From contig CM119371.1 of NCBI GenBank assembly GCA_051294905.1, forward strand, positions 20,338,001-20,402,000: DNA of 64,000 bases, read 5' to 3'. Position 1 is the first letter of the stretch. Each line of letters starts with the position of its first letter. Made by a program: the position numbers and the translations under genes. The stretch comes from Botryllus schlosseri (taxonomy: Eukaryota). Of this stretch, positions 1,294 to 62,370 are shown piece after piece. Below the pieces are notes generated by a model that was not told the origin of the DNA, ran no database searches, and was given only the letters and a program-made list of their open reading frames with translations.

Positions 1294-1371
1294 ATTTTGT
1301 GCGATCTTACTTATAGTTGCAAATATTTAGAAATAGACTTAACCTATACATATTGTATTGAGGATATCATT

Positions 1372-4883: not shown

Positions 4884-5039
4884 GATGATTGAAATTGAGA
4901 CCGTGATATCATGATAAGATGATGGTGTTGATCCTTGGTGTAACAAACAAAACAGAGAACTTGATATTAATAAATTGTGGTTTCCGTTAAGACGATATTA
5001 AAGTAATTTTGATATAAATAATAGGCTTCCTTACCAGCG

Positions 5040-5954
5040 ATGTGCGGCAATGGAATCTATTGTAATGAAGTCCACAGTACCAATTTTAGAAGAGAAAACG
5101 TGTTTTCAGTAATATGTGAGTGTGAAATGGTGGCAATCTTTATTGAAAGAAATACCACTGTAGATTGGGTAGCCACCATTTTGAGTCAAAACCAGCATTT
5201 GGGTATGAAGCATTTCAATAATCATCCAGGTCACCCCAATATTGACGCGTGGATACAGCGATATCGTAGAGAATATTTTCACTATTCAGACCAGCGGGAC
5301 CGTGTGTATACCGTTTTGGACGTAGCTTTGAGCTCCTATTTACGAAGTACCAATCAAGCTATGATCCCCAAAAGAAAGACAAAATTGATTCGCGGAGTTT
5401 TGGTCCCAGAGAAGGTTATATCGGCCATATCTGTCATAGACCGTGTTACATTGGCTAGCGCGGAATATAAATATTTGACATCGAACCTAGTCATTTTAGA
5501 AATTGCCTCCGAGCTTCTATGCGCCAATGATAATCACGCGGGTAGGAACTCGCAGGCCGAAATTGAGGGAGACGAAAGTAATGTATGGTCGGTAACTGAG
5601 GAGTCTATGGAAGCTACCACGACAGGAACAGCTGATGAGAGGGAACTTTATCTTCATCCAATAAAAAGGGAGGAATCGCCGTTAGTGGTCGGAGGCTCAG
5701 AATGTGAAGAGGACAACATGGATATCACAATTACACGCGTGGTGTCCCTTGCTCACCAACAGGAAGTCCGGGGGAAAAGGCGCGGATCTCGTCGAAGGCG
5801 ATTTTGGTGGAATCATGAACGGAATGTTGGACAACACCGTAGTCATGATCGATGTGCTCGGACCAGTCGATACGACGTCAGTCAGAACAGGTCGGAATTA
5901 GAGTTTGGGGAAGCGGGAAGTAGTAAATCGAGAATGGGATACTACCCTTATTGA
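5040..5954 (+). CDS. Accessory protein 2, PWWP3A/MUM1 C-terminal-domain-like, with acidic and Arg-rich (NLS-like) tail
   Basis: 304-aa ORF. YFHYSDQRDRVYTVL...KLIRGVLVPEKVISAISVIDRVTLASAEYKYL; tail has RGKRRGSRRRR. A pyrimidine tract plus CAG (cttccttaccag, ending 5037) lies just before the ATG. Confidence 0.7.
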   Translation: MCGNGIYCNEVHSTNFRRENVFSVICECEMVAIFIERNTTVDWVATILSQNQHLGMKHFNNHPGHPNIDAWIQRYRREYFHYSDQRDRVYTVLDVALSSYLRSTNQAMIPKRKTKLIRGVLVPEKVISAISVIDRVTLASAEYKYLTSNLVILEIASELLCANDNHAGRNSQAEIEGDESNVWSVTEESMEATTTGTADERELYLHPIKREESPLVVGGSECEEDNMDITITRVVSLAHQQEVRGKRRGSRRRRFWWNHERNVGQHRSHDRCARTSRYDVSQNRSELEFGEAGSSKSRMGYYPY

Positions 5955-6875
5955 AAAGTAGTTTTGACGTTAATGGCCGTAAGAACAGTCAGCCAAATGT
6001 ATGGTTTGGTGACAGACATGGAGTAGGCGTTGTATCATTGGAAATTTCATTTAGAGGTGTTTATTATATTAGAAGTGAAGTACGGATTTATTTTATTAGA
6101 TGTGGGTGGTGATTTAAGCATAATTACGAGATATGTAATTCTTTATATTATTTTAGATGTGTAATTTTACGAAAGGCGTTTAACCGATCCTTGCGCGGTT
6201 AAGGGTATTTCCTAATATTATTGATGGATGATATAGTATAATTAAATTTAATATTATTATGGTGGGCTTGACAATAGTGTTTCGAGTAATTTCAAAAAGA
6301 ATAGATGTAGGCTACCTTTTCCAAAGGTCATAGTGGAGCAGTAATAAGCAATTGAATATTACGAGAAATTATGTAATGGTTTAATGCGTAAGGCAGGAGT
6401 GGTTATATGATTGAAAGACTATGACATGGTTCGTATCGACGGCTTTGTAAATATTGTGAAATTAAAGTCGTATATGAGGATTATACCGGAAGGAATAAGG
6501 AAGTTATTAGATGATGGATAGAGGGATTTAAACTTATGGCCCTATGGCGTAGTTATCTAATTCATTAAATACTGTGTAAAATCTTAATAATCGAACGGCC
6601 CTAACAGTAGATAGTATGTCATGTAATTTACACGAAATGAGGTCATAAAATTGGAATTTTGTGAGTTATTACCCTTCAAAACAATGCCCGGCTGATCCAT
6701 ATGAAGCCATGTAATTGTGACCCTGACCCTTCATTAGTGTTTAGAACTGGACCTAGAACGTCAAAAATACTCATTTGTAATAGGCTCATGTGGTTATGTG
6801 TGATGTATAAATATTGTTTTAATTGAAATTTTATGGTTATGTATGATGTGATACAGTTTATGATATATTGGTTTA

Positions 6876-7466
6876 ATGCTCACGTGTAAGATACATTTAC
6901 CAGTTAATGTTGTTAAAGCATGCGCCATGTGCAAAGCGTTGTATTGCGAGTTTTCACGAACTGTTCATGCGGCTTGGTCTCCGACTGAAGAAGAATTTAT
7001 GGAGCAGGCCAAGAAAGAAATAGAATTTTTGACATCATCAGCCGAACCGCTGGTACACTTATGCGAAGTCCTTACCAACCAACTCCATCCCAGAGTAATG
7101 TGCGTCCTTGGAGACTTATGGGAGATATATTTCGACGATTATGAAGGTTTTTCATTGAAATACGTCCCTGAATATTATTGTTTCCATGGGTTGAAAGACG
7201 AAATCGGCAAATTTCTTGCGCACGTGGTGGACTGGATGTGCATAATCGACCCAGAAATCCCGCAACTGTGGCATGGTGATGAACAATTAAAAATCAAAGT
7301 GATTTATGATCTACTGTTGCCAGAAGCTATCATATTTTGCCATTCAAAATGTATGGGAATATCATTGGCTGATGCGGAAAACCATTATCTTAGAGATGGA
7401 AAGAATCAGTTGATTGCGGGTGGATGGAAGACTGCGAAGGGTAAACTGAATGATCCAGCCAGGTGA
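6876..7466 (+). CDS. Accessory protein 3, PWWP3A/MUM1 C-terminal-domain-like
   Basis: 196-aa ORF. KIKVIYDLLLPEAIIFCHSKCMGISLADAENHYL (PEAII at 7320); N-terminal CxxC...C. Confidence 0.65.
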   Translation: MLTCKIHLPVNVVKACAMCKALYCEFSRTVHAAWSPTEEEFMEQAKKEIEFLTSSAEPLVHLCEVLTNQLHPRVMCVLGDLWEIYFDDYEGFSLKYVPEYYCFHGLKDEIGKFLAHVVDWMCIIDPEIPQLWHGDEQLKIKVIYDLLLPEAIIFCHSKCMGISLADAENHYLRDGKNQLIAGGWKTAKGKLNDPAR

Positions 7467-8998: not shown

Positions 8999-9022
8999 AT
9001 AGGGGGTGATTCTAAAGCAATT

Positions 9023-11413
9023 ATGAGTTTTTTTTGGCAGAAAAAGAAAAAAAATGACGCTTCTGCACTACAAAAGAATATTGCATTGATGAAAAACACT
9101 CAGCAGCGACATCTCGCGACTCAAACTAGAAAAGACCATTTAGTATCGGAGGTTCAGGACCAAGCAAAACTTTTGAAGGAGGTAAAATCTATGCTACCTA
9201 AAACTGTTAAAGATTTGAAACAGGCTAGAAAAGATGTCAAACAGGCGGAAATTGATTTGAACGCGGTACAAAAGGCCACCGAAAAAGCCTGCACCAAGAT
9301 ATCCGCTGAAACGCTGGACCAGGTTTTGAGTAGACAATTTCAAGCGGGGGTGGATTTTGAAAAAACGGAGGGAGTGTCAAAAATACTTTCTATGCCTACA
9401 TTGGCGAACCCAAGACCGTCCGCTCCACCGCCGGATTATCGTGCAACTCAAACCATTCCGGTATTTACGAAGGCTTTGCTTCCAAGTTCTAGTGATTCCA
9501 CGCTACCAAAAAAAATTCTGAAGCAACCCGGGGCAGCGCCGACTATAACAAATCCTAGTGTTATGCAAATGTCATCATTTCCCGTGGGAGTGGCTGGATT
9601 AGATGTGATTCCAGACCACCATGTCATCAGAGGATCAATTATTGGACCACCGGATTCGGAAGGCGTGCCACGATTGCTAGCATCGCAACGTTCACGTTTA
9701 ATTGCGAAGCCGTTATTCACCCCACAAAACACACAGCGCCAAGGGCGGATTGTGGTGCCCCGGCCAGGGAAAAGAACCAGAGTTACCTGGTACGATGATG
9801 ATAAGGGGGACGAGGGTGATAATGAGGACGATGACGCAGAGTCTGATCTTATTGACCTGGATGACCATAGTAGTGATTCGGGTCAGAGTCATGTTGATGT
9901 ACCAAATACGAAGCCCATGACGATGCAAGAAATTTTAGCCATCATGAAATCGCCCGGAAGTATGCCTCTGTTGCGATTTATCGAGGATATACTTAGATGT
10001 GTACCACACGGCGATGGTGATACGATAGCGGACCGAATCTTGGCCAACGCTATACAGCATAAATTAATCATGGCAAAGAGATCGGATGAGGCGGAGCAAT
10101 TGGCAGATATACTTAGCGTTGACAATCCAAAGTGGCAAGACGCTTTGGAAATATTGTCATTGGCCAACCCAATTGAGACGTGTAATAAGGATGCGTTGAT
10201 TCGTGAATTTGCCGAGTCATTCAATTGGACAAAGACACCTATATTGGAAATTCATCGAGTTCTCAGAAAGATGGACCTGCCCCTCGATCAGATAGTAATG
10301 GGCGACCCAGATGGTATTAGACTCTTTCGAAATCTGAGGTCACTATTGCCCCCCACCCTGAGAACCCTGCTACAGGGCTATGAATTTTTGTCATGGCAAA
10401 AAATCGCCAAATTGTTGCAGGAATTTTGGAATAGTGAGAAAATGGATCGTCAAGCCGCGATAAAACCGTACGCAACTCCGGCATCTTATCCAGTGCATAA
10501 GCAAATACCGACAGCCGTTAATACACCGAATTCCGTGTCTTATCCGGTAGCCACGCCCACGCCAGTGACGATATATAATTGTCAAACTCCGAGAGATATG
10601 CCGTGCTGCCCTACTAGGAGCTCGGAAGGCGTGAGAAGTCAAACGCTGTATCAAGGAGCTGGGGTCGCTTACACGGTGGAACCCACACGGCGGAATCCTG
10701 AACGACAAGCAAAGAAGAATCGTTTTCAGCTGAATCGGAATCAGCCAACCTTGAGAGGTAGGACCGATGTGCCTAGCGATAAAAGAGACTCCACTCCAGC
10801 GGACAGTTATGAAGCAAGAAGAATAGCTCAAGAACAAGGTAGATCTTATAATTTTCTTGAGAACCCAAACGTCTTTGAAAAGCTTGGATTGTATACGCAT
10901 CCTTCTAATGGCCAGAAGTTAATGGTGTGTTACCTATGTAAAAGTATAGGGCATTCTGTCAGCCAATGTTTATGCAAAGTAATCCTCTGGATTAACCAAC
11001 TAGTACTTACTAAAGATGAGGAGGGTGAATGGATTGTCCGCCCTCGCTCGAAACCCCTTCCAAGCCCATTGTTTGAAGAAGTAAAATCTAAGTGGGAATC
11101 TTTCCTCCGAGGTGAAAATCCGGAGGGCAGAAAGCTAATGACAATCCAAGATTTAAACCAATATTTCGCTGATCAGGGGTCCCCCAGTTTGCAAGAGAGA
11201 GCGCGGTTATGCGAATTGTATTTTGACGAGCGCCCAAAACGACGTGATCCATTAAATTGGCAACATAGACCAATTTTTGAACCGCCAAATATCGAGGCGC
11301 CAATGGCTAGTGCTAATCCTGTGGTTTGTCGTCCAAATGTCGTCCAACGGCCCTTTCCTCATTGGTCGGATTCAGAATTGTTAACTGGGGTGAATTTGTC
11401 AAAAAACGGTTAG
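9023..11413 (+). CDS. gag: Gag-like polyprotein (796 aa)
   Basis: Basic N-terminus (MSFFWQKKKK), coiled-coil, PSAPPPDY late-domain motif (9416-9439), acidic linker, helical CA-like region, and zinc knuckle CYLCKSIGHSVSQC (10928-10969). Overlaps pol in the -1 frame. Confidence 0.85.
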   Translation: MSFFWQKKKKNDASALQKNIALMKNTQQRHLATQTRKDHLVSEVQDQAKLLKEVKSMLPKTVKDLKQARKDVKQAEIDLNAVQKATEKACTKISAETLDQVLSRQFQAGVDFEKTEGVSKILSMPTLANPRPSAPPPDYRATQTIPVFTKALLPSSSDSTLPKKILKQPGAAPTITNPSVMQMSSFPVGVAGLDVIPDHHVIRGSIIGPPDSEGVPRLLASQRSRLIAKPLFTPQNTQRQGRIVVPRPGKRTRVTWYDDDKGDEGDNEDDDAESDLIDLDDHSSDSGQSHVDVPNTKPMTMQEILAIMKSPGSMPLLRFIEDILRCVPHGDGDTIADRILANAIQHKLIMAKRSDEAEQLADILSVDNPKWQDALEILSLANPIETCNKDALIREFAESFNWTKTPILEIHRVLRKMDLPLDQIVMGDPDGIRLFRNLRSLLPPTLRTLLQGYEFLSWQKIAKLLQEFWNSEKMDRQAAIKPYATPASYPVHKQIPTAVNTPNSVSYPVATPTPVTIYNCQTPRDMPCCPTRSSEGVRSQTLYQGAGVAYTVEPTRRNPERQAKKNRFQLNRNQPTLRGRTDVPSDKRDSTPADSYEARRIAQEQGRSYNFLENPNVFEKLGLYTHPSNGQKLMVCYLCKSIGHSVSQCLCKVILWINQLVLTKDEEGEWIVRPRSKPLPSPLFEEVKSKWESFLRGENPEGRKLMTIQDLNQYFADQGSPSLQERARLCELYFDERPKRRDPLNWQHRPIFEPPNIEAPMASANPVVCRPNVVQRPFPHWSDSELLTGVNLSKNG

Positions 11414-14400
11414 CTACACTGGCTCATTTTGTGAACCAGTGTGCAGACGAACTATTACCACATAGAACCGCGAGAATAATAAATAATTTGTCATTGCCGT
11501 TATTTAGTATGTTCGGGGAAATTAAAGATTCTGATGATTGTAATTTCGCAAAGCTTTTTGGGGGTGAATTGATGTACCTAGTCGATATGAACACTAATGT
11601 AAATTTTTTAGCAGACACAGGAAGCGTGCCAAATTTGATGATGTCGTCGACGGCGAAATTGGTTTATCCCTATAGTTGGCGAAGGCGGTGTTCATTGCGT
11701 ATGAATTTACAAGGTATAGGTGGGTCGTCACAGGTTGAGTCATTAATATATATAGAAATTGATGGGGTTTCAATTCCTTTTGCGTGTGGTAATGTCCCGT
11801 TAAATATTATCGGATATCATTGGATAGACAAGGTTATATCGCTGCCTTCAATTGATGCGGTGTTAAAAAGCCCGTCAATTGCAAGTCACGAGCTGGCTCA
11901 GTCCGAAATAGGTGTTCCGTGTTCATTGTCGACATATGCCGTGATAGAATATGATGACGAAGGGCGGGAAATAAAAACTTTGGCCAAACAAAGAAATAAC
12001 GTGAAGAACAGCAATCGCGAAGCTGTTTCGGATGTTAGGTCGTTAGAAATTGGAAAGTCGCACCCGTGCCAATTTAATAGTGACAGCGCTGTTAGTATAT
12101 GCGCTGAAAATATTGGTGAAATGCAGGCACGAAATTTGGTCACATTCGGTGTAAAATGTGAGTGCGACGGGTTGAAAAGTTTTAGGGCGCAAGATCTTTT
12201 CAATCCAATAGGCCCCGAAGTGGATGTTGACGTAAGCGTACCGAAGCATCAAAAATCTCATAGTGGAGAGTTATTTGCCTCGTTTCTAACGACAAATAAA
12301 AGGCCAAAATATTTCCCGCGAAAAGTATTCGATGGTCCAATAACGGAATATGTGTTGCAAAATGAATCGGATATAGAGGTTAGATTGGAATTGGAAGAAC
12401 TTCGTAAGCAATCCGTATTGCTGTCAAAAACGCCATTCCAACAGCCCGATCTAAATGACGACGCCAATGCTATTATAGACGAAAAAACATGGAGAGCGGT
12501 GTATGAGCCGTTCGCCGCGGAATTAGAAGATCTCGTCGGGCATCTACAGGGAAAGCAGGCCATGATGTATCCATGTAAAATAGAACTAAAAGATGAGTCG
12601 ACTACTCCTTTTGTGTCTTCGCCTTATAATTTAAGGGGTAAAGAACAATCGACTGCTTTGGAAGAAGCAATTGACAAATTTTTGCATCTTGGTATTGCAG
12701 AAGTTGGGTTTGCGGATTGGATGTTGCCTATATTTGTGGTTCCGCAAAAGGTGAACAGCGCCCAAATGAAATCTGGGGGCTGGACCCAGAAATGGCGTGT
12801 AGTGCAGAATTTACAGCCGTTAAACTCGAAAATCCGAATAATGGAAATAAATATGCCTTTAGTAAGCGATATGAAGCAATTGGCTCAAGGTTGCGAAGTC
12901 CTCTCATTGATCGATTTACAGAAGGCTTATTTTCATATTGACGTGGCCGAAGAATCAAGACATTTCCTGGGTATTGCGGTAAAAGGGCATTATATAAGAT
13001 ATCGGAAATTACCCATGGGGCTAATATTTAGCGGGGCTTTATTTACTATTAACATTTTAGAGGGGGTTATACAACCAGTTCTTAAAAAATATAAGGCTTA
13101 TATGGAATCCCAAGGTAGAAAGGACGAATTACTTTCAAACCCAATTGAGGCTTATATTGACGATATCTTTTTATGTACAAAAAATGTGAATGATCATTTA
13201 TTCCTTCTTAAAATTGTATTCGAGCAACTTGCACTAATGAAATTGACAGTCAGTGTACATAAGTGTTATTTTGGTAAACGAAAAATCGAACTGCTGGGTT
13301 CTACAATAACCGGCCGCAATATTGAAATCCAACCTCAACGCTTGTTTGCGTTGAAAACTATGGCACCCCCAAGAAATATTTACGAATTGCGTGGGTGGAT
13401 AGGATCTATACGGTATATTTCTGATCACGTACCAAAACTAAGCGTAAAACTAGCGAACTTTGATTCGCTCACGGGCAATGTGCCTGCGACGAGGGCAAAA
13501 TTAACGCCCGTATTTTGGACAAGGCAACTTTTAGAAGATTTTAAAATAATCCAGCATAGTCTTGATGATCCTCAGATTTTGTTTCATTTTGATCCCAAAT
13601 TGCCATTGTTCGTGGAAACTGATGCTTCAGACGTTGGGTTTGGGGCAGTAATGTTCCAAACAGAACTGGGAGCCACACACCCTTTCGACACGGTGTATCC
13701 TCTTGCGTATTATAGCCATAAGTGGGTCACTTCTACCGCGCGGGCGTATAACGCTTGTACTAAAGAATTGAAGGCACTTCGTGATTCGGTTGAAAAATGG
13801 CAAACTACCTTACGATGTACTCCTTTTACAATAATCACAGATAACGCTGGAGTATATGGACTACTTCAGAGGATGACCAGCCGGGGAAAGCATCCTAGCC
13901 CTGATCTGTTATTACAACGATGGTTGAGTTATTTGTCCGGTTTTCAGATAAAACGAGTTATTAATTTGAAAACAGATGAAGTGTTCACATCGGATGGTCT
14001 GTCTCGATCTTATTGGATGCAGTTCGCGGCGGACGACCAAGACCCAGGCGTGTGGACGGTGGTCGCTGATAATCAAGGGGGCGATACAACTGGGGGTGAA
14101 GTGAGTTCAAAAAAAATTGCAGAAAAAATATGTCGACGGGTACTACAACATTGTAGGCATGAGTCTTGTAAATATGTGCAAAATGGCTACCACCCATGGA
14201 AACAAGTTCAATTAATATTGCTTGAAAGTCTCGACATCAATTTTCCGATTGACGAATTGAAAAAGGTGTTATTAAATTGCAGACGTGCAATTTTAAACGA
14301 GACGGGGGTAGCAGCGGCACATGGGCATACTCTTGGACAGACGCCTAAATATGATGAATATGAAGGTAACGACGCTTTATTCCACATAACTAAACAAGAA

Positions 14401-14625
14401 AATTTGAAGTCCATAATACAGGGCGAATTAAAATCAATGAATCGCCGCTATATACATTTCACAAATAGGCGTGCTGAGATTAAAGATAGACATCGACAGA
14501 AGGTGGTGAGCGCACAACCTCAAGTATTGCGAAGATTGGGATATCATTTTTGGCAATCACCGAACCCGGAAGTTATTTTGTGTAAAGAATCGATCCCAGG
14601 GGTATTATTAAGAGTGGAGGAATGA
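11326..14625 (+). CDS. pol: Pol polyprotein: aspartic protease, reverse transcriptase, RNase H; no integrase DDE core recognised
   Basis: FLADTGS (DTG 11614-11622); RT motifs WRVVQNLQPLN, LIDLQKAYFHI, LPMGL, YIDD (13153-13164), LLG; RNase H VETDASDVGFGAV, KELKAL, IITDN, SDGLSR. About 200 aa follow without a D,D(35)E pattern. Confidence 0.92.
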   Translation: MSSKCRPTALSSLVGFRIVNWGEFVKKRLATLAHFVNQCADELLPHRTARIINNLSLPLFSMFGEIKDSDDCNFAKLFGGELMYLVDMNTNVNFLADTGSVPNLMMSSTAKLVYPYSWRRRCSLRMNLQGIGGSSQVESLIYIEIDGVSIPFACGNVPLNIIGYHWIDKVISLPSIDAVLKSPSIASHELAQSEIGVPCSLSTYAVIEYDDEGREIKTLAKQRNNVKNSNREAVSDVRSLEIGKSHPCQFNSDSAVSICAENIGEMQARNLVTFGVKCECDGLKSFRAQDLFNPIGPEVDVDVSVPKHQKSHSGELFASFLTTNKRPKYFPRKVFDGPITEYVLQNESDIEVRLELEELRKQSVLLSKTPFQQPDLNDDANAIIDEKTWRAVYEPFAAELEDLVGHLQGKQAMMYPCKIELKDESTTPFVSSPYNLRGKEQSTALEEAIDKFLHLGIAEVGFADWMLPIFVVPQKVNSAQMKSGGWTQKWRVVQNLQPLNSKIRIMEINMPLVSDMKQLAQGCEVLSLIDLQKAYFHIDVAEESRHFLGIAVKGHYIRYRKLPMGLIFSGALFTINILEGVIQPVLKKYKAYMESQGRKDELLSNPIEAYIDDIFLCTKNVNDHLFLLKIVFEQLALMKLTVSVHKCYFGKRKIELLGSTITGRNIEIQPQRLFALKTMAPPRNIYELRGWIGSIRYISDHVPKLSVKLANFDSLTGNVPATRAKLTPVFWTRQLLEDFKIIQHSLDDPQILFHFDPKLPLFVETDASDVGFGAVMFQTELGATHPFDTVYPLAYYSHKWVTSTARAYNACTKELKALRDSVEKWQTTLRCTPFTIITDNAGVYGLLQRMTSRGKHPSPDLLLQRWLSYLSGFQIKRVINLKTDEVFTSDGLSRSYWMQFAADDQDPGVWTVVADNQGGDTTGGEVSSKKIAEKICRRVLQHCRHESCKYVQNGYHPWKQVQLILLESLDINFPIDELKKVLLNCRRAILNETGVAAAHGHTLGQTPKYDEYEGNDALFHITKQENLKSIIQGELKSMNRRYIHFTNRRAEIKDRHRQKVVSAQPQVLRRLGYHFWQSPNPEVILCKESIPGVLLRVEE
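11401..11444 (+). promoter_or_regulatory. -1 programmed ribosomal frameshift signal (gag-pol)
   Basis: Slippery heptamer A AAA AAC (11401-11407) is in the correct gag phase, with a single codon (GGT) between it and the gag TAG. A hairpin follows: ACACTGG (11416-11422) pairs with CCAGTGT (11436-11442), with extra GC/GC and TCA/TGA pairs. pol is in the -1 frame. Confidence 0.8.
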
Positions 14626-17600: not shown

Positions 17601-19015
17601 CGGCTGTAGGCTAGTGATAAACAACAACAAGATGACCGTTATTAAAAATAACATCACAGCCAATCTATTTATGTTGGAAGTGGGAATAAGTTTATTACTT
17701 CAAAGCTGATTCTGTATCTTAACTTCTTGAAATATGCGGTCGTGCCTTGAAAATCCGCGACGTCTGTTTAATATGAACAAGTGCCGAAAATCGATTTGCG
17801 CAAAGATAGCTAGTGGCGGATGTAATAACAACGCATGACACTTTCGACGACACCTTTGGGTATCATCGCGGCATGTATGATAGAAAAAGCGATTTTTAGT
17901 TAACATATAACGTCCAGCATAGTGATTGATATCTAGCAGTTCATCTTGAAATTGTTCTGGAATAGCGGTAATGCATACCACAGGAGAAAACGGATTTTAC
18001 AAACATTTCTATTCTAAAACGTCAACAAAACATCTTTAAACAGCATTGTTTGTAATGATAGGCTATGAGCAATTTGGCAATTAAAATGAGTTTGCACAGT
18101 GGAATATTTCATCTCCGACGGCCGTTCTGTTTATGTGAGTTATTAAGTTTCAGCGGTCATGAAGAGAAACGGCCACGTGATTTCTCTAATTAAAAAAGTA
18201 CGGATTAGGAGGTTTTGTGAACCCGCTGATAGTCCTTCGCGAACCCGTGATTAAGGAACACTGTTAACCGATAACTGGCACGCTGGGTTTTACTGACGCC
18301 CCATTAATTATTATTACAATCAAAATTACAATATGACAATCCTTTCTGGGATGCATCGAGCAGAAAAAGCGATGATTTACTTCAAAAACTAAGATATCGG
18401 ATTCTCCGCATTATTATTATATGTGATGAGTCAAATATACAAGATTTGATGAATCTAGAAGTTTTCGAGTGCATGTATCTATTCCAATGCGGTTACTACC
18501 CTGGAAAATTCAATGGCTTGACAAATTCTCGGCAGATAATGAGTATTGCTGTACCTTGTGAGTCACCAAATAGTTTTGAGGGGTCCGTGAAACATCAATC
18601 AATATCACGAGGAATATGCTAAAAACCGGGTATTAAATCCTGACTTTACCGCTAATACGACAATTCATCATTCACACGATTACAAAGTAGACGACTTTCA
18701 GGCCGGAATTGGGATAATCAATAGATATCAGCAGAATTTGAAATGAGTGAAGGAGAGACCTGATCTGTACATTTGGCATAATGATTATGCATTTTCCTGT
18801 AGTCAAGTCACAGGCATGATTCTGAAAGATTCAGCCCATTTTCTGGGCGTGTTTTTTCCGAGTGGATGTTTGATTATTGCATTGGCTTGAATAAAGGTTT
18901 ACCTCATATCAACTGCTGTAACGATGGTAATAGATATGCCATGAATGATATAAGTAAGAATTTTATGCTTTCGGGTCCGTCAAGGCCGTGCTAAGTAAAA
19001 GTGTGAGAACTCCTC

Positions 19016-22000
19016 AGTAGTGAGGGTGGATCAAATATACGCAGGCCAATCAGAGAGCGCCACGTCATCCTAATTGCCACGCCCATTTTCACACCCGAAG
19101 GGTATATTCATCTGCTACGTCATCTGTGCCACATCATCAAGCGCCACGCCTATAGTGCCACATCATCAATCCATTGCTATATCATCACTGCATTGATTGC
19201 CGCATCTTGATACTTTTCTCAGATATTCTATTTTGTGTATTTAGGACTAATGTCATCCGTCCATATTTTTAGACTTGATTTTATCTGTACAAGTTACGGT
19301 TTCTGCAGTGTCCACATTTTACGACTTATGATTTCCACGTCAAAACTTACCTTGGCTAGAATCGACGGCATGATTTTTGTGATAAGGACCTAGGTAACAT
19401 TCAGAGTCTGCAACGATTGTTTGGATATACATTATAGCAATACCGCACCAAACTATAGGCGGTTATATTACTCTATTGGTCAGAGATAACTCATCCGTCC
19501 ACATTTTTAAACTTGATTTTATGTATACAAGTTACGGTCTCTGCAACCGAACTTCAACGTAACGATTTTTCAGTAAGCAGTTATGTTTCCATGCTACTTT
19601 TACTTCTATTTAACGGGTTTTCATAGCGATTTTGAGTGCAGGCAGATAGCGGTTTCGATTTCCGAGGTCTCCACATTTTAAGCCTTATTATCAGTTCGCA
19701 GTACAACCGCTACCCGTATAATGTTTGCATGTCGAGTATAAGGGTATTTAACTCAGCACTAAAATGCCAACGGACTAGCCGCAGGGCCCGGTTCTCGTCG
19801 CTATAATTAAACGAACACCTTCGCCGCAGGTACGCGATCCCCGACGTTATAATGATAGGGCCAAATTAGCCGCATGAAAGCGAGTCTAATGAATATAACG
19901 ACAGACACCAAGTTAGTTGAAAAGTAAAACTAATCGTGACCGATGCAAGACGGATTGAAACAGCGCTTTCGCTCGATTCTTGTAGTGACCACATTTCATA
20001 CGATTCAGTCCTTTTCATGTCACTAGAATAAGGGTGATTAAACCGACAGTGAAACGCCGCCGGCATCTTATAACGTAATAATGTAAGCTGCGTCGGATGC
20101 TGCTATAATGTTAGGAGCGAATATAGTAGAAAGTCCACGTCTACGCATACTACCGTAGTAGAACGCAATTCACGCAAAAGTCGATATTGCTTTGTGATGA
20201 TTTTGATGTTGTTCCATACCGATTGGGAAGATAGGACTCCTAATTCCTTAACTAACTACATAATCTTTAGTAACGTAGTCAGAAGCATAACGGAATTTAC
20301 GCAAAATCGGTATTGCTCTGCGATAATTTTTACCACTATGTTTTGATAATAACTTGCTTCCGAGAAATAGATAACATTCATTATACGTTAGATGATACTT
20401 TTCCTTTATATTCTATTATGTGTATTTAGGGCTAATGCGACATCACTATGTTGGCGACAGGCCTGATTTGAACACACTAATTTTGCAAATTAAACTTATC
20501 ACCCACCACGAACACTCAGTGAAGAGCATACCCTGGAGCACCCTCATAAATGCTCTACAATTCGTGACGTATAATATATACTGAGCATATAATAAGCTGA
20601 CAAAACTGATACTTGAGTACTCCGAAATGTTCCATTGTCATAATGTCCTACACCTGTGAACCAATCTTCAAGTTGCGCATTCAATGTTTAGCTCGGTAAT
20701 TCCGTTATTAAAGTTGAGTATGCATAGGTACGTGCTACGCTCCCGCAAAAGTCGGTATGGAACTGCGTTAGTTTAAAATTTGTTCAATCATGAAATGCGT
20801 AACAAAATTTGACATGGTGCATTGTCATAATAATGTCTTACAACTGCGTACCGAGTTTCAAGGTGGGGAGTCGAATATTAACATGGTAATTCCGCTATTA
20901 AAGTTGACTATGTATCGTGCTACGCTACGGAAAAAGAGATTTAGCCAAAATTCTGTATCGAACTGCTTTGGTTTTAAAGGTGTTACATCATGAAATGTCT
21001 GACGAAATTTGGTATGGTGCATTGTTATTATGTCCTACAACTGTGTACTAACGTTCAAGGTGAGAATTTAATGTTTAGCATACTAATTCTGTTATTGAAA
21101 TTGACTATGTATGGGTATATGCTATGTTCACGAAAATCAGATATGCGTAAAAGTCGGCATTCGACTGCGATAGTTTCAAAGGTGTTCCATCATTAGATGT
21201 GTGATGAAATTTAGCATGGTGCATTGCCATAAGGCTCTACAACTACGTATCAAGTTTAGAGTTGGTATTCAATGTTAAGCATGGTAATTCCGTTATTAAA
21301 GTTGGCTATGTATGGATACGTGCAATACGCTCCCGCAAAACAGATGTATGCAAAAAGTCGATGTAAAGCCGCGTTAGTGTTAAAGTTGTTCCATCATGAA
21401 ATGTGTGATGGGATTTGGTATGGTGCATTTTTATAATGTCCTATAACCGCGTACCAACTTTCAAGGTGGGAATTCAATGTTTAACACGGTAATTCTGCTA
21501 TTGAAATTGACTATGTATAGGTATATGCTATGTTCACGCAAAACAGATATGCGTAAAAGTCGGTATTCGACTGCGTTAGTTTTAAAGGTGTTCCTTGATT
21601 AGATGTGTGATGAAATTTAGCATGGTGCAACAAAAGTCTGTATCGAACTGCTTTAGTTTTAAAGGTGTTACATCATGAAATGTCTGACGAAATTTGGTAT
21701 GGTGCATTGTTATTATGTCCTACAACTGTGTACTAACGTTCAATGTGAGAATTTAATGTCTAGCATACTAATTCTGTTATTGAAATTGACTATGTATTGG
21801 TATATGCTATGTTCACGAAAATCAAATATGCGTAAAAGTCGGTATTCGACTGCGATAGTTTCAAAGGTGTTCCATCATTAGATGTGTGATGAAATTTAGC
21901 ATGGTGCATTGCCATAAGGCTCTAACTACGTATCAAGTTTCGAGTTGGGATTCAATGTTAAGCATGCTAATTCCGGTTTTAAAGTTGGCTATGTATGGGT

Positions 22001-22763
22001 ACGTGCTATACGCTCGCGTAAAACAGATGTACGCAAAAAGTCGATGTAGAGCCGCGTTTAGTTTTAAAGTTGTTCCATCATGAAATGTGTGATGGGATTT
22101 GGTATGGTGCATTGTTAAAACGACCTATAACCGCGTACCAACTTTCACGTTGGGAATTCTATGTTTAACACGGTCATTCTGCTATTAAAATTGACTATGT
22201 ATAGATATATGCTATGTTCACGCAAAACAGATATGCGCAAAAGTCGGTATTCGACTGCGTTAGTTTTAAAGGTGTTCCATCATTAGATGTGTGATGAAAT
22301 TTAGCATGGTGCATTGCCCTAATGTCCTACAACTACGTATCAAGTTTAGAGTTGGGATTCGATGTTAAGCATGGTAGTTCCGTTATTAGAGTTGACTATG
22401 TATATATGTACACGCTACCGAAAACAGATTTAGGCAAAAGTTGCTATGGAACTGCGTTAGTTTTAAAGTTGTTCCATCATGAAATGTGTGATGAAATTTG
22501 GTATGCTGCATAATCACAATGTTCTACAACTACGTACCAAGTTTCAAGGTGAGGAGTCACATATTAGCATGGTAATTCTGTTATTAAAGCTGACTATGTA
22601 TATGTACACGCTACCGAAAACAGATTTAGGCAAAAGTTACTACAGAACTGCGTTAGTTTTAAAGTTGTTCCATCATGAAATGTGTGATGAAATTTGGTAT
22701 GCTGCATAATCACAATGCCCTGGAGCTCATTTAGATACGTTTTTAAATGTAGTTACACATTCT
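19016..22763 (+). repeat. Left terminal inverted arm (~3.75 kb)
   Basis: Reverse complement of 25208-28079, near-identical. Mirror ORFs are identical (19866-20066 vs 27029-27229; 20790-21196 vs 25899-26305). It is longer because of extra tandem units. Confidence 0.95.
20630..22730 (+). repeat. Diverged ~200-bp tandem repeat array inside the left arm
   Basis: Recurring core CATCATGAAATGTGTGATGAAATTTGGTATGGTGCATTG near 20787, 20987, 21190, 21393, 21672, 21874, 22076, 22278, 22475 and 22672. Includes a higher-order ~685-bp duplication. Confidence 0.9.
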
Positions 22764-22949
22764 TGAATACTAATTAAAAAATAAAAAATAAAGAGCGAAA
22801 AATTACATTTTATCCCGGGACGTAACAAGAAAAATCGTATGAATTTGTAAACTACTTATTCGGTAAACTACTCTTTACTTCACAAAACAAAGTTACAAAA
22901 GTAAGCAGATTTATATGAAAACCCGTTAATTAGAAGTAAAAGTAATAAC

Positions 22950-23500
22950 AATGCATCATACCACATTTGATCACAATTTCATGATACAATACCTTTAAAA
23001 CTAACGCAGTTCTCTACACACTTTTGCGTAAATCTGTGTTTCGCTAGCGTAGCACGTACCTATACATAGTAAGCTTCAATAACGGAATTACCATGCTAAT
23101 AATCAAATCCTCACCCTGAAACTTGGTACGCGGTTATAGGACATTATGAAAATACAACATACCAAAATTTCGTCAGACATTTCATGATGTAACACCTTTA
23201 AAACCAACGCAGTTCTATGCCGACTTTTGGCTAAATCTGTTATCCATAGCGCAGCACGTACCTATACATAGTCACCTTTAAAACGGAATTACCGTGTTAA
23301 TAATCGGCTCCTCACCTTGAAACTCGGTACGCAGTTGTAATACATTATGACAATGTACCATGTAAAATTTTGTTACGCATTTCATGATTGAACAACTTGA
23401 AAACTAACGCAGTTCTATACCGACATTTGCGTGAAACTGTTTTGCGGGAGCTTAGCACATACCTATGCGTAGTCAACTTTAATGACGGAATTACAGATGT
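22950..23500 (-). repeat. About three further units of the ~200-bp repeat, in reverse orientation, in the spacer
   Basis: Reverse-complement cores (ATACCAAA..TCAGACATTTCATGAT) near 22960, 23160 and 23360. Confidence 0.8.
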
Positions 23501-23858
23501 AATTAGGTTTCAGCACTTTTACAACGATTCTTCTTGCTTCCTATAACATCCCACTCGAAGCCCTCGTTATTAGGCTATGATCTCAGCCTATGAGCTATGT
23601 CTTGAAGCCTAATGGGACTTTGCAAACTGTTTCGATTTATTCTACCCGTTTTAATTTAAGGAAGCCCATTTCACTCAATGTATCGATGCCTACAGTATAG
23701 AGTATACTCTACAAAATTTTCTGATTAATTCTCCCTATGTTAATTTACCATAAGACAATTTGACTCCTAAAGTCCGAAATACTCGTTCGCTTGAGCTAAA
23801 CCGCAGCGCCAGGAGTGGAATTTTATAGTTCTTGTAAAAAGTTGTTTGTACACAATAT

Positions 23859-24927
23859 ATGTTTAAGGTAAGTCCTACGCATTCATGATTTCGTCCGAGT
23901 TTGTATTTTAGTAATATATACTAATTTACGATACCGCGTTTGTAACTTGTGCAAGTATAGGCCTACAGAAATAGCATAGTTCTTGAACCGTGCTCAATGC
24001 TCAATAGACCATTTTTGCTATTTTTCATCGCCATAAGTCATTCTGGATCGCGTAAACGCATCGTACGATATAGATGAAAGTTATGCAAATTCTAGGATCC
24101 TCATTTTCAAAGTAGCTTAGATCTCGAAATAAGCTCCGACTCGCTATTTTCCTCAAAGCATGGAATTACACGAGTATCACCTTCGATCGCTGAAGAAAAG
24201 GATGAGATTATATCCGAAGCATATTCCTTGACCAGGAATTTTATCATGTACGAACTCGATGGCTCATGCGTTAAGGTAAATACGAAAGCAGAGAGAACCT
24301 TACGTCGAGTTGGGGATGAAATGTTCGAGCGACATCGAACTGTCCTAAACGCAGTCTCCAAACGTCTCCGCTATAGCGATGTAGAAGTCAATGAAAAATA
24401 TAAAGAATATTTACCCGATGAGCGAATGTTCCAGATGATAGCTGATGAAATTTGCAAAGATACCAAAGAAAATTGGGGTAGGATTGTCTCCCTTTTTGTG
24501 CTCGGTAGCATTCTTGCTCGCAAGAACGAGGATGAACATCATGGGGAGCATATAGAAGCTATCATACAGACAGTCGGAAATTACATTGCTAGCAGAAGAC
24601 TAAAGTGGATAGTGCGAAATGGAGGATGGGTGGGTGATTTACATGCTTTGCTTAGGATTTATAAATTATCTTTTAGCTTGAGATATATAGTGTATCCGCT
24701 CCCCAGAGCCCATATCATCTCTCGATGATGAAACTCAGCTTTACCTTCCAATTCGGTTCCCGATACGATAACTTTCATCCGTATGATCATTAAAGCTTCT
24801 ATTTTTGTTGTAGGATGGCTTTGTAGGATTCTTTGACAATACCGCTCTCGACTACAATAAAGTTTGGAAGGGACTCGTGTTTGTCGGAATCGGACTGACA
24901 TCTATAGCAATGGCATTATCAAGATAA
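23859..24927 (+). CDS. Bcl-2 family anti-apoptotic-type protein (MCL1/Bcl-2-like), 3 exons: 23859-23867, 24096-24629, 24814-24927 (218 aa)
   Basis: BH3 TLRRVGDEMF, BH1 ENWGRIVSLF, and BH2 WIVRNGGW|DGFVGFF joined across a phase-0 GT..AG intron (24630-24813) at the position conserved in Bcl-2-family genes. BH4-like ISEAYSLTRNFIMYEL; C-terminal TM anchor VWKGLVFVGIGLTSIAMAL; AATAAA at 24966. Exon 1 (ATG TTT AAG|GTAAGT) is in phase with the acceptor at 24095 but is less certain. Confidence 0.9.
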
Positions 24928-25207
24928 TGGATGCTCGCATGTTTTGTCTCATGTAATATTTTAAGAATAAAATTTACTTATTCATGACATATTAATAATT
25001 CTACTTGTACATTTTTTCACATTTTATAACACTTCAAATAGTACTTAACAGTTTCAGTTTTAATTAAAATACGGAATATAAACTAATCGAAAAATTCGGT
25101 AACCAATTTCATGTAGGCTATGCATACAAATGAGGAAATTACATCAACTCGTGTTACACTAGTTGTATCGAGTTATCGAATGATTTTTTCCTTGCACCAA
25201 AACAACT

Positions 25208-28079
25208 AGAATGTGTAACTACATTTAAAAAAAAAGTATCTAAATGAGCTCCAGGGCATTGTGATTATGCAGCATACCAAATTTCATCACACATTTCATG
25301 ATGGAACAACTTTAAAACTAACGCAGTTCCATAGCAACTTTTGCCTAAATCTGTTTTCGGTAGCGTGTACATATATACATAGTCAACTCTAATAACGGAA
25401 CTACCATGCTTAACATCGAATCCCAACTCTAAACTTGATACGTAGTTGTAGGACATTAGGGCAATGCACCATGCTAAATTTCATCACACATCTAATGATG
25501 GAACACCTTTAAAACTAACGCAGTCGAATACCGACTTTTGCGCATATCTGTTTTGCGTGAACATAGCATATATCTATACATAGTCAATTTTAATAGCAGA
25601 ATGACCGTGTTAAACATAGAATTCCCAACGTGAAAGTTGGTACGCGGTTATAGGTCGTTTTAACAATGCACCATACCAAATCCCATCACACATTTCATGA
25701 TGGAACAACTTTAAAACTAAACGCGGCTCTACATCGACTTTTTGCGTACATCTGTTTTACGCGAGCGTATAGCACGTACCCATACATAGCCAACTTTAAT
25801 AACGGAATTACCATGCTTAACATTGAATACCAACTCTAAACTTGATACGTAGTTGTAGAGCCTTATGGCAATGCACCATGCTAAATTTCATCACACATCT
25901 AATGATGGAACACCTTTGAAACTATCGCAGTCGAATGCCGACTTTTACGCATATCTGATTTTCGTGAACATAGCATATACCCATACATAGTCAATTTCAA
26001 TAACAGAATTAGTATGCTAAACATTAAATTCTCACCTTGAACGTTAGTACACAGTTGTAGGACATAATAACAATGCACCATACCAAATTTCGTCAGACAT
26101 TTCATGATGTAACACCTTTAAAACCAAAGCAGTTCGATACAGAATTTTGGCTAAATCTCTTTTTCCGTAGCGTAGCACGATACATAGTCAACTTTAATAG
26201 CGGAATTACCATGTTAATATTCGACTCCCCACCTTGAAACTCGGTACGCAGTTGTAAGACATTATTATGACAATGCACCATGTCAAATTTTGTTACGCAT
26301 TTCATGATTGAACAAATTTTAAACTAACGCAGTTCCATACCGACTTTTGCGGGAGCGTAGCACGTACCTATGCATACTCAACTTTAATAACGGAATTACC
26401 GAGCTAAACATTGAATGCGCAACTTGAAGATTGGTTCACAGGTGTAGGACATTATGACAATGGAACATTTCGGAGTACTCAAGTATCAGTTTTGTCAGCT
26501 TATTATATGCTCAGTATATATTATACGTCACGAATTGTAGAGCATTTATGAGGGTGCTCCAGGGTATGCTCTTCACTGAGTGTTCGTGGTGGGTGATAAG
26601 TTTAATTTGCAAAATTAGTGTGTTCAAATCAGGCCTGTCGCCAACATAGTGATGTCGCATTAGCCCTAAATACACATAATAGAATATAAAGGAAAAGTAT
26701 CATCTAACGTATAATGAATGTTATCTATTTCTCGGAAGCAAGTTATTATCAAAACATAGTGGTAAAAATTATCGCAGAGCAATACCGATTTTGCGTAAAT
26801 TCCGTTATGCTTCTGACTACGTTACTAAAGATTATGTAGTTAGTTAAGGAATTAGGAGTCCTATCTTCCCAATCGGTATGGAACAACATCAAAATCATCA
26901 CAAAGCAATATCGACTTTTGCGTGAATTGCGTTCTACTACGGTAGTATGCGTAGACGTGGACTTTCTACTATATTCGCTCCTAACATTATAGCAGCATCC
27001 GACGCAGCTTACATTATTACGTTATAAGATGCCGGCGGCGTTTCACTGTCGGTTTAATCACCCTTATTCTAGTGACATGAAAAGGACTGAATCGTATGAA
27101 ATGTGGTCACTACAAGAATCGAGCGAAAGCGCTGTTTCAATCCGTCTTGCATCGGTCACGATTAGTTTTACTTTTCAACTAACTTGGTGTCTGTCGTTAT
27201 ATTCATTAGACTCGCTTTCATGCGGCTAATTTGGCCCTATCATTATAACGTCGGGGATCGCGTACCTGCGGCGAAGGTGTTCGTTTAATTATAGCGACGA
27301 GAACCGGGCCCTGCGGCTAGTCCGTTGGCATTTTAGTGCTGAGTTAAATACCCTTATACTCGACATGCAAACATTATACGGGTAGCGGTTGTACTGCGAA
27401 CTGATAATAAGGCTTAAAATGTGGAGACCTCGGAAATCGAAACCGCTATCTGCCTGCACTCAAAATCGCTATGAAAACCCGTTAAATAGAAGTAAAAGTA
27501 GCATGGAAACATAACTGCTTACTGAAAAATCGTTACGTTGAAGTTCGGTTGCAGAGACCGTAACTTGTATACATAAAATCAAGTTTAAAAATGTGGACGG
27601 ATGAGTTATCTCTGACCAATAGAGTAATATAACCGCCTATAGTTTGGTGCGGTATTGCTATAATGTATATCCAAACAATCGTTGCAGACTCTGAATGTTA
27701 CCTAGGTCCTTATCACAAAAATCATGCCGTCGATTCTAGCCAAGGTAAGTTTTGACGTGGAAATCATAAGTCGTAAAATGTGGAAACTGCAGAAACCATA
27801 ACTTGTACACATAAAATCAAGTCTAAAAATATGGACGGATGACATTAGTCCTAAATACACAAAATAGAATATCTGAGAAAAGTATCAAGATGCGGCAATC
27901 AATGCAGTGATGATATAGCAATGGATTGATGATGTGGCACTATAGGCGTGGCGCTTGATGATGTGGCACAGATGACGTAGCAGATGAATATACCCTTCGG
28001 GTGTGAAAATGGGCGTGGCAATTAGGATGACGTGGCGCTCTCTGATTGGCCTGCGTATATTTGATCCACCCTCACTACT
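25208..28079 (-). repeat. Right terminal inverted arm (~2.87 kb)
   Basis: See left arm. Inner junction AGAATGTGTAACTAC (25208) mirrors GTAGTTACACATTCT (ends 22763). Confidence 0.95.
25250..26465 (-). repeat. ~200-bp tandem repeat array inside the right arm (fewer units)
   Basis: Reverse complement of the left-arm array, lacking ~0.9 kb of units. Confidence 0.9.
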
Positions 28080-28962
28080 CCCCTCCTCCCTAAATCAAAT
28101 AAATATTTCAGTTGTCCATCCTTGTATAGTGTGTCAGGATTGGTTGGCGAATTGAAGGAGAAATTGAAACATTCATCGCAATAGCATAAAAATATTGTCA
28201 GTCTCCTATATGTAACAATAACGGGATATTCATTCTGGATCATGGATTACAAATACCTCGCACGTTTCCATTCGATTACGCAATCGAGTACATTTCTTGC
28301 TCCTAAAACTCGGACTCCCACAGGCTCCAAGCCGTTTTCTTATCCTTATGCATTTTCTGAATCTCTCAGTTATACTGAAAAATAATATTAGACTCGGTAA
28401 AACCAAACCTTACAATCGTGCAATGACAGTAGTTGCTCTCGTCGATCAAACCACCCGTCGCGAAGATGAACAAATCGTACAATGTACACTCTACAGATCC
28501 AGCGATTTTGTCTCTATACCGACTAGTTACTGATATGTCATTTGACTCGAAAATTTCACTTCCAGTCACGAATCTCACGGGAGTAAAGTCATGTCTTAGA
28601 TTGGAGCGGTTCTCAATAGCCACTCCGCGGACCGGTACCGGTTCGTGAAGTCTCCTGCCGGTCCGCCAAAGATAATTAGACTTCTCTATTTGAATTCGAA
28701 ATTTCTAGACATTTTAAGAGACAAATAAAACATCAAAGTGTAAATTGATTTAGAAGTATGGCATGAATTTCTGCATGGTCATGGTCTGCTTTCAGCGTAC
28801 ATCTCAATGGTGCAAGTATCTCACGAAACTGTTCAAAAGTTGCCCACAACTCGTGTCGTACAAGTTTTATACGTGGAGTCTACGGAGACGTTTACGAAAA
28901 CTTAATTCGTTAATTCTGATAGTGCGAATAATCGACACAGAGGTTTATAATAGAGACTATAG

Positions 28963-61859: not shown

Positions 61860-62370
61860 ATATCAAAAGCTGTGATATAGCAGTACTTGATTATTGCATT
61901 GACTTGAATCATGGATTACCTGAGATCAACAGTCGTACCAAAGGTAATAGATGTGCCATGGATTATATAAGTATGAATTTTTGCTCTGGGTCCGCTATGA
62001 CTAACAAAAAAATTAGGCGGCCGTGCTAAAGAACAGTGTAAGAACCCCTCCTCTAAATCAGATAAATAATTCAATTATCCTCTTTGTATAGCGAATGGGG
62101 ATTGGTAGGCGAATTTAAAGAGAAATTAAAACATTCATCGAATCAGCATAAAAATATCGTCGTCGGCCTATATTATCTGTAACAATAATAGGATTTTCAT
62201 GGATGGATCGTGCGTTACAAATACCTTGCAGGCTCTCCAGCGATTACTCAATCGATTGCAGTACCTGCTCCTAAAAGGCGGATTTCCACACACCATAGAT
62301 CGTATTCTTATCATTGTGCATTCTCTGAATGCCTCCGGTTTTCTAAAAAATAATGTTAGTATTAATGCAG
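61860..62370. repeat. Duplicated block Z, uninterrupted paralog of the sequence split by the Polinton-like element
   Basis: Matches ~18870-19015 joined to 28086-28390. Confidence 0.8.

Follow-up and report, generated by a model that had tools for sequence, protein, structure and literature searches.

Introduction

Polintons, or Mavericks, are virus-like transposons, reportedly described by Kapitonov and Jurka in 2006, and are usually portrayed as low-copy and self-sufficient elements. According to the accessible text of one report, the hallmarks of Mavericks are the end motifs (AGT)2//(ACT)2 or (AG)3//(CT)3 together with target site duplications (TSDs) that are perfect and 6 bp long (PMC8097293); in that of a survey of vertebrate Polintons, a 6-bp TSD and a long terminal inverted repeat (TIR) are termed typical, and the number of non-autonomous copies is given as zero (PMC3014272). 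Here we analyze a stretch of 64,000 nucleotides of the genome of Botryllus schlosseri (assembly GCA_051294905.1, contig CM119371.1, positions 20,338,001 to 20,402,000 of the forward strand), referred to in its full length as the window and numbered from its first letter, in which an element of about 9 kb (19016..28079) holds a gene of the Bcl-2 family between two long inverted arms. This element belongs to a family of giant palindromes with the ends of Polintons, more than one hundred of which apparently hitch-hike in this single genome.

The family shares with Polintons the (AGT)2…(ACT)2 ends, the 6-bp TSD and the long TIRs, and young autonomous Polintons reside in the same genome. It differs from them in the absence of their defining genes, in the possession of tandem arrays of a 202-bp unit and of an apparently host-derived cargo, and in the extent of its arms, which measure 2.4-7 kb and make up nearly the whole element, whereas the TIRs of the autonomous copies found here measure about 0.5-0.9 kb. 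As far as the cargo is concerned, Bcl-2 homologues are encoded by viruses, e.g., the adenovirus E1B-19K and the herpesvirus vBcl-2. The family resembles these cases in that a Bcl-2-fold gene is borne by mobile, virus-related DNA and presumably controls the death of the carrier cell; here, however, the carrier lacks replication and structural genes, the cargo keeps a cellular intron and groups with genes of the host lineage, and the copy number reaches hundreds per genome.

The nearest precedent that we found for the cargo is the BCL2-like motif of the planarian Burro elements, which the available part of the report describes as giant Gypsy-like retrotransposons carrying BIR and BCL2-like motifs (PMC6431247). 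Burro is likewise a transposable element with an apoptosis-regulator domain; as presented in that part of the report, it is an autonomous long terminal repeat (LTR) element with the motif placed within a polyprotein, whereas here the gene is separate, spliced and carried by a non-autonomous DNA element (PMC6431247). Mavericks of nematodes move host-type cargo genes; in the available text of that preprint they are virus-like, with genes of their own, and neither a palindromic satellite nor a Bcl-2 cargo is mentioned (bioRxiv 10.1101/2022.07.12.499685). Our literature search retrieved no report joining Polintons, Mavericks or adintoviruses with a Bcl-2 or apoptosis cargo and, on non-autonomous, palindromic Polintons, nothing pertinent among the matches listed.

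The finding that we report is the family as a whole, the copy in the window being a damaged, single-gene derivative. With a probability of roughly 0.7, we interpret it as a family of non-autonomous, Polinton-ended palindromes that captured a host Bcl-2 gene, has kept it under selection and is inserted in trans, and the window copy as a decayed derivative of such an element.

A Genome-Wide Family of Giant Palindromes

The two arms of the window element are 2,360 nt long each and 100% complementary (repeat finder, one arm pair). The element opens with AGTAGTG and closes with CACTACT; over a longer tract, its start reads AGTAGTGAGGG and its end is the reverse complement of AGTAGTGAGGG. The multi-kilobase arms and the AGTAGT...ACTACT termini that an earlier note on this stretch had described are, hence, both borne out. 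The hexamers beside the element, CTCCTC on the left and CCCCTC on the right, agree in five of six bases. The flanks belong to an old dispersed repeat, a second copy of which lies in the window (61887-61994, 82.7% identical to the left flank; 62045-62359, 77.6% identical to the right one), and in this copy CCCCTC is present once (62045-62050), with no insertion. Because the flanks align to this uninterrupted paralogue with its single hexamer, the insertion, the empty site and the 6-bp duplication claimed by the earlier note are real, although the two copies of the duplication differ at one base.

When the terminal 300 bp were compared with the 495.5-Mb assembly from which the window comes, at least 48 scored matches were obtained out of 1,045 first-look candidates, many of them forming plus/minus pairs 12-30 kb apart. 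With up to two mismatches allowed, a subterminal 30-mer matched the genome 130 times in forward and 132 times in reverse orientation (reversed control, 0), and the listed pairs are spaced 7-36 kb, mostly 12-18 kb. Twenty-nine of the 30 oriented termini start with AGTAGT and the remaining one with AGAAGT; positions 8-30 exhibit mosaic differences between elements, being identical at both ends of any one element, and the sequence is conserved again from position 31. It is because nt 8-30 vary between members that a 40-nt terminal pattern matched only four sites in the genome. A perfect 6-bp TSD, with a different hexamer each time, flanks 10 of the 12 other end-pairs, a chance match being expected once in 4,096. 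The members of the family thus number well above one hundred, each of them a giant palindrome in the size range of about 7-36 kb. The single copy that the earlier note had considered as an adverse outcome is contradicted by the hundreds of termini in this genome; the search with the terminal sequence that it had proposed did yield many TSD-flanked copies with the same cargo, but, in the two Polinton clades examined, no partner sharing more than 6-9 nt with them.

A typical arm consists of a 1.6-kb terminal unit, 202-bp arrays and, in most members, one inward-facing Bcl-2 gene. In a complete member of 16.8 kb, the arms measure 3,957 nt (99.975% identity), an inner palindrome (99.5%) surrounds a centre of about 40 nt, a unique insert of 2.1 kb is present, and the only notable open reading frames (ORFs) are the two copies of the Bcl-2 gene. 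That the inner palindrome of this member might be a nested insertion was considered and rejected, since it is not AGTAGT-ended. The arms within one element are 99.9-100% alike; the elements nearest to that of the window are about 97-98% identical to it, and the closest pair of different elements that we saw reaches 99.3%.

The possibility that such structures are an assembly artefact, i.e., fold-back chimeras of long reads, would account for arms that are 100% identical over 2,360 nt. It does not explain the asymmetric spacer, the unequal copy numbers of the arrays, the TSD and the empty paralogous site of the window element, nor the existence of more than 100 further loci of the same build, with a perfect TSD of their own in 10 of the 12 end-pairs checked, and we consider it extremely improbable.

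Two further observations concern the structure of the family. The variable block of about 23 nt (19023-19045 and 28050-28072 in the window; loci L001-L030) is a mosaic of few alternative sub-blocks; a block that is matched between the ends of an element and variable between elements is the opposite of what would be expected for the conserved core of a replication origin. Moreover, at G000:C10:21036757-21057607 and G000:C9:13235413-13257052 two gene pairs each lie in succession, with a spacing of about 11.5-12.4 kb and identical scores, which suggests a tandem duplication of whole elements.

The Ends of the Family Bear the Polinton Signature

The same genome harbors autonomous Polintons. The first one examined spans about 15.8 kb and has 887-nt TIRs that are 99.2% identical, the TSD CACGGG and the termini AGTAGTATAG… / AGTAGTATAGTAG; one of its frames, of 844 aa, matches DNA_pol_B_2 (PF03175; 31.2 bits, cut-off 25.8), and another, of 344 aa, combines an rve with a chromo domain. 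Its polB, used as a query on the genome, retrieved at least 54 scored copies out of 314 candidates, most of which are 94-98% identical to it and open over 1,200-1,300 aa; a second clade stands at about 70%. In this second clade, for which the ends of one member were read, the termini are AGTAGTGTAA… / AGTAGTGTAATTG, the TSD is GACGGT and the TIRs measure about 490 nt. Judged by its terminal sequences, the window family bears exactly the end signature of Polintons, common to the young and apparently coding-competent Polintons of the same genome. The window element shows the 6-bp TSD and the 5'-AG…CT-3' termini by which Polintons are recognized, and the statement of the earlier note that AGT-repeat termini with a 6-bp TSD are Polinton hallmarks agrees both with these two autonomous elements and with the accessible text of the report cited above (PMC8097293). 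Many copies with TSDs of their own coexist, then, with potentially active autonomous elements in one genome.

As regards coding capacity, the window element has no ORF longer than 90 aa except the Bcl-2 frame, and none of the 10 further ORFs (61-90 aa) has a Pfam match. Neither a polymerase nor an rve integrase, a capsid, a packaging ATPase or a protease was detected in it by ORF and Pfam scans, the only ones applied, in keeping with the earlier note, which had seen no replication or capsid genes. Two fuller members (16.8 and 25.7 kb) likewise lack long ORFs of Polinton or transposase type. Since it does not possess the gene content of an autonomous Polinton, the element is classed as a non-autonomous derivative. 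The 10-mer CYACRTCATC occurs four times in each terminus of the window element (nt 45-152) and once in the remaining 54.9 kb of the window.

Foldback (FB) elements possess very long inverted repeats, partly made up of tandem repeats, many of their copies are non-coding, and their TSD is 9 bp long. A cut-and-paste transposon of this type, belonging to another superfamily and merely Polinton-like in its ends and in the length of its TSD, would fit the very long and partly tandem inverted repeats described here, which recall those of Foldback, as well as the fact that likeness to the Polintons examined is confined to 6-9 terminal nt. In the family, however, the TSD is 6 bp rather than 9 bp long and the ends read AGTAGTG, no transposase-like ORF was found in three members, and the exact heptamer AGTAGTG abutting a 6-bp TSD is common to the autonomous Polintons of the same genome and, going by the accessible text of its source, to the published Maverick motif (PMC8097293). 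We regard this origin as improbable.

The Bcl-2 Cargo Gene and Its Copies

The cargo frame matches PF00452 (E-value 1.2e-21; 77.6 bits, cut-off 31.4). Exon 1 ends in …RNGGW, and exon 2 starts with DGFVGFF… and encodes, as read from the translation, a hydrophobic tail, i.e., a putative C-terminal anchor, followed by the stop codon. The translation contains LRRVGDE, NWGR and GGW, which we take to be the Bcl-2 homology (BH) motifs BH3, BH1 and BH2, and all of them are kept in 31 copies. A GT..AG intron lies directly after GGW in all 32 copies, as well as in a solo gene on contig C14 discussed below; in cellular members of the Bcl-2 family, an intron is located directly after the tryptophan codon of BH2. 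The best 60 of 176 matched solved structures are Bcl2l10, Mcl-1, Bcl-xL and A1, all of them pro-survival. By these closest solved relatives, the cargo would be of the pro-survival type, a putative activity, given that sequence cannot separate pro-survival from pro-death proteins.

Among 402 candidates in the genome, at least 150 matches to exon 1 were scored; their identity is 79-100%, and a stop is absent from 141 of these 150. About 53 pairs (106 matches, counted by hand) are ordered plus and then minus within 17 kb, that is, their genes face each other; on account of these inward-facing pairs, the gene belongs in most members to each arm, and there are therefore two copies per element. The idea of the earlier note that Bcl-2 is a cargo of the spacer applies to the window element, but not to most members of the family. 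In an alignment with 31 other copies (one per element where distinguishable), the ATG and the GT..AG borders are present in all 31, exon 1 is open in 30 (471 or 474 nt), exon 2 has a stop in two, and 28 are open throughout. In nine diverged copies, the reading frame runs beyond the usual stop of the family.

Selection, Origin and Transcription of the Cargo

According to the method of Nei and Gojobori, the ratio of nonsynonymous to synonymous divergence (dN/dS, or omega) ranges for exon 1 from 0.24 to 0.40 when the three subfamilies are compared with each other, and from 0.29 to 0.62 inside a subfamily. Six single between-subfamily pairs gave omega values of 0.20-0.47, with Fisher p values from 0.03 to 1e-9 (the pairs being non-independent) and a bootstrap upper limit below 1 in five of the six. 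Between subfamilies, the divergence of the intron (Kimura two-parameter distance, 0.30-0.43) is close to dS (0.16-0.45) and greatly exceeds dN (0.08-0.10). On the evidence of these substitution patterns, the cargo gene has been under purifying selection while the family diversified, so that we are dealing with a cellular apoptosis regulator multiplied to at least 150 mostly open copies under past purifying selection.

These data bear on the possibility that Bcl-2 is a passive passenger, captured by chance and amplified with the element, with no effect on the element, its helper or the host. Such a scenario would be in agreement with the existence of at least one member without the gene, with the broken state of the window copy and of 3 of the 31 others, and with the within-subfamily dN/dS of 0.29-0.62, whose bootstrap limits are wide for close pairs. 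It is difficult to reconcile with between-subfamily values of 0.20-0.47 in the presence of an intron divergence equal to dS, with 28 of 31 copies remaining open despite up to about 20% nucleotide divergence, and with the conservation of the ATG, the splice sites and the BH motifs in every copy examined. On balance, we consider a passive passenger unlikely.

Concerning the source of the gene, a word-indexed search for protein relatives gave four matches (the best at 57%) and a full HMMER search 215, 12 of them at <=1e-10. The closest named protein is the bcl-2-like protein 2 of Styela clava (51% identity), whose best match in the B. schlosseri genome is the solo gene on C14 (L080, G000:C14:19037185-19040688). 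This gene is 70.5% identical to the cargo and has its intron at the same position; the ATG of the cargo is absent from it, and the 1.3 kb upstream are unique except for a dispersed repeat of 263 bp. In a maximum-likelihood tree of 44 rows, with midpoint root and several long outgroup branches, the 31 copies carried by elements all group in a single clade (100/99) to which the C14 gene is sister (100/99), and the clade made up of cargo and C14 gene is nested in a larger one that also includes the S. clava gene as well as two unnamed proteins derived from assemblies, i.e., among tunicate-type cellular Bcl-2-like genes. Because the cargo copies are monophyletic, the C14 gene is their sister and both are nested in cellular genes, a single capture of intron-bearing host genomic DNA can be proposed. 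The direction, from host to element, is the one that this topology suggests, and the solo C14 gene is a candidate for the host progenitor. The repeat of about 263 bp just mentioned (L080, 3018-3280) has 3,533 first-look candidates, with copies 96-99% identical, and is probably a very young family of short interspersed nuclear elements (SINEs) or miniature inverted-repeat transposable elements (MITEs).

The cargo is transcribed at the level of the family, the RNA evidence for this being thin. Out of 12.9 million records of bulk RNA sequencing (RNA-seq), 33 reads fall on 23500-25300; they cover exon 1, exon 2 and the 3' untranslated region, and neither the intron bins 24659-24780 nor the unique flanks have any depth. 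From a single-cell run, 29 reads were obtained, massed at the 3' end (24842-24963). As for a spliced-leader acceptor just before the ATG, no loose read ends were seen there in the RNA runs, where depth is very low.

How the Palindromes and Their Cargo May Have Arisen

In the explanation that we favor, the autonomous Polintons of the same genome, which appear to be young, would supply integrases that recognize the outermost termini common to both and act in trans to insert the element. The palindromes would arise as snap-back (copy-back) products of the protein-primed replication of one genome end, an origin modelled on the defective genomes of adenoviruses. One capture of intron-bearing genomic DNA of a host Bcl-2-like gene would have founded the cargo lineage, and the cargo would most likely act in the manner of a viral Bcl-2 homologue, sustaining the cells where helper and satellite multiply. 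In the window element, array recombination would then have removed the centre and the second gene, the remaining copy having been frameshifted at codon 4. It is from the features described above that we infer the mobilization in trans, the inhibition of apoptosis and a benefit to helper or host.

Several observations weigh against this reading. The termini of both examined Polinton clades match those of the family over the first 6-9 nt only, so that neither has termini in common with it beyond the end motif and no helper can be assigned; blastn found no similarity between the whole window element and both autonomous Polintons, CYACRTCATC occurs zero times in the TIRs of these two elements, the 26 polB matches listed for contigs C1-C8 all fall outside the end-pairs listed for the family, and no autonomous element with its subterminal sequences was found in the two clades. 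Two of the 12 other end-pairs are without a matching TSD and that of the window is matched in five of six bases; besides carrying this mismatch, the window element has arms that are 100% identical, though its nearest relative is only about 97-98% so. A member of 25.7 kb, with arms longer than 5 kb, contains neither the Bcl-2 gene nor any long ORF, which implies that the cargo is dispensable for mobility. With respect to the nature of the cargo, an Atlas look-up gave chordate Bcl-2 clusters, one near cluster being Bok-like. As to its expression, 31 of the 33 bulk reads overlap 23500-25300 only in part, and the majority show 95-99% identity, for which reason they are attributed to other copies of the family, and in the RNA runs the splice joint 24629/24814 is below the threshold for listing.

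A different explanation, which overlaps with the favored one and departs from it on the origin of the elements and on what is supplied in trans, is that they represent the defective snap-back genome of a Bcl-2-encoding Polinton virus, which bore that gene close to its terminus; they would have been formed by copy-back of one end rather than being only cut and pasted by the integrase of a helper, and would be replicated from two identical origins and perhaps packaged by the helper in the manner of a defective interfering genome. In adenoviruses, the gene for E1B-19K is located near the left genome end, and slide-back priming, with which the terminal AGT repeat of the family is compatible, is established for protein-primed replication. 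Members that are almost complete palindromes with tiny loops (as in the 16.8-kb member, with its 3,957-nt arms at 99.975% and its centre of about 40 nt), the variable 23-nt block that is always the same at the two ends of one element, and the inward orientation of the genes in all of the about 53 pairs are what such a virus might leave behind. Nevertheless, no Polinton with a Bcl-2 gene was found and no listed polB match lies within 15 kb of a listed Bcl-2 match, scans of viral contigs with the cargo protein and with a 25-nt TIR motif gave no match, and the element sizes, ranging from 7 to 36 kb, reveal no capsid-like constraint on length. This origin appears possible, even though we find it doubtful.

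Returning to the favored reading of a Polinton-ended satellite with a captured host gene, a more far-reaching version of it, which we put forward as a tentative and rather unlikely idea, holds that snap-back derivatives of Polinton viruses, devoid of genes, took up a pro-survival Bcl-2 of the host as their only gene and were selected for keeping helper-replicating cells alive. If this were true, the family would set a precedent, as the first non-autonomous DNA element of eukaryotes whose maintenance is known to be due to a cargo that manipulates the host; the cells kept alive, those where the helper Polinton multiplies, could belong to the germline or be stem cells, and the host would end up with hundreds of additional intact Bcl-2 genes through which its control of cell death could be reshaped. 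More generally, if the cargo is functional, the family would be a parasite of a parasite bearing a host-control gene, a tractable case of the first acquisition of a viral Bcl-2, via intron-bearing genomic DNA, and, for an animal, a natural experiment in which the dosage of Bcl-2 genes is massive. The palindromic architecture, in turn, bears on how protein-primed replicons yield defective genomes.

The Copy in the Window

The features of the window element are collected in Table 1. Inward of the perfect arms, both sides carry tandem arrays of a unit of about 202 bp, extending on the left to about 22744 and starting on the right from about 25230; aligned in shifted registers, the two arrays are 85-99% identical, the left one having about four extra units. 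The spacer between them (22745-25229) contains the Bcl-2-family gene. The 3.2-kb module, in which a partial array is followed by the upstream region, the gene and a further array, is colinear, at 95.4-95.9%, with both inverted halves of the closest two-gene relative. Because it matches both halves, the window element is an apparent derivative without the palindrome centre and the second gene, and it was probably recombination between same-orientation 202-bp arrays that removed them.

The gene was considered intact in the earlier note; a PF00452 gene is indeed present in the spacer, but this copy is frameshifted. It alone has an exon 1 of 470 nt, one base being missing after the ninth coding base (after 24168; codon 4), so that the family ATG gives 23 codons and then a stop. 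An in-frame internal ATG exists at 24246, and a start there would drop about 29 N-terminal residues. The deletion of 1 bp may be an assembly error; the sole contig aligned across it has the extra base, but may stem from another copy. The coexistence of perfect arms with a mismatched TSD and a broken gene suggests either arm-to-arm homogenization or an effect of assembly polishing. In most other copies, the similarity to the module ends at 24974, and since this is 13 nt past AATAAA, the shared module ends about where the transcript should end.

Table 1. Coordinates of the features of the window element and of its paralogous empty site.
Feature	Position	Strand	Basis or remark
Left TSD copy, CTCCTC	19010..19015		One base different from the right copy
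Left perfect TIR arm, start AGTAGTG	19016..21375	+	Repeat finder, 100%
Variable block of about 23 nt, same at both ends of each element	19023..19045	+	30 termini compared
Conserved subterminal 30-mer with CCAAT motif, family marker	19046..19075	+	Genome pattern matches
Four direct copies of the 10-mer CYACRTCATC	19060..19167	+	Motif count
Left array of about 202 bp, about 10 units	20627..22744	+	Repeat finder
3.2-kb gene module, single here, double and inverted in the closest two-gene relative	22764..25936	+	95.4-95.9% to L032 and L033
Partial 202-bp array, 2.6 units, oriented like the right arm	22976..23494	-	Repeat finder
Upstream region and 5' leader of the gene, kept among copies	23500..24159	+	Copy alignment
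Bcl-2 exon 1, family ATG at 24160, ends in ...NGGW	24160..24629	+	Copy alignment, Pfam
GT..AG intron, immediately following the GGW codon of BH2	24630..24813	+	Copy alignment, RNA-seq depth
Exon 2: end of BH2, hydrophobic tail, stop codon	24814..24927	+	Copy alignment
AATAAA signal	24956..24961	+	Loose ends at 24974
Right array of about 202 bp, about 6 units	25230..26468	-	Repeat finder
Right perfect TIR arm, end ...CACTACT	25720..28079	-	Repeat finder
Right TSD copy, CCCCTC	28080..28085		Differs from the left copy at one base
Paralogous empty site, hexamer present once	62045..62050		Flank alignment

Other Features of the Window

Outside the element, two frames on the forward strand (5025-5954 and 6864-7466) match the C-terminal domain of the PWWP domain-containing DNA repair factor 3A/B (PF20886) and adjoin large unannotated frames at 1294-3513 and 8999-11413. 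A frame of 1,102 aa on the same strand (11317-14625) encodes a reverse transcriptase, an RNase H and a C-terminal RNA 2'-phosphotransferase (Tpt1/KptA; PF01885, E-value 3e-07), the last of which is an unusual accessory domain for a retroelement.

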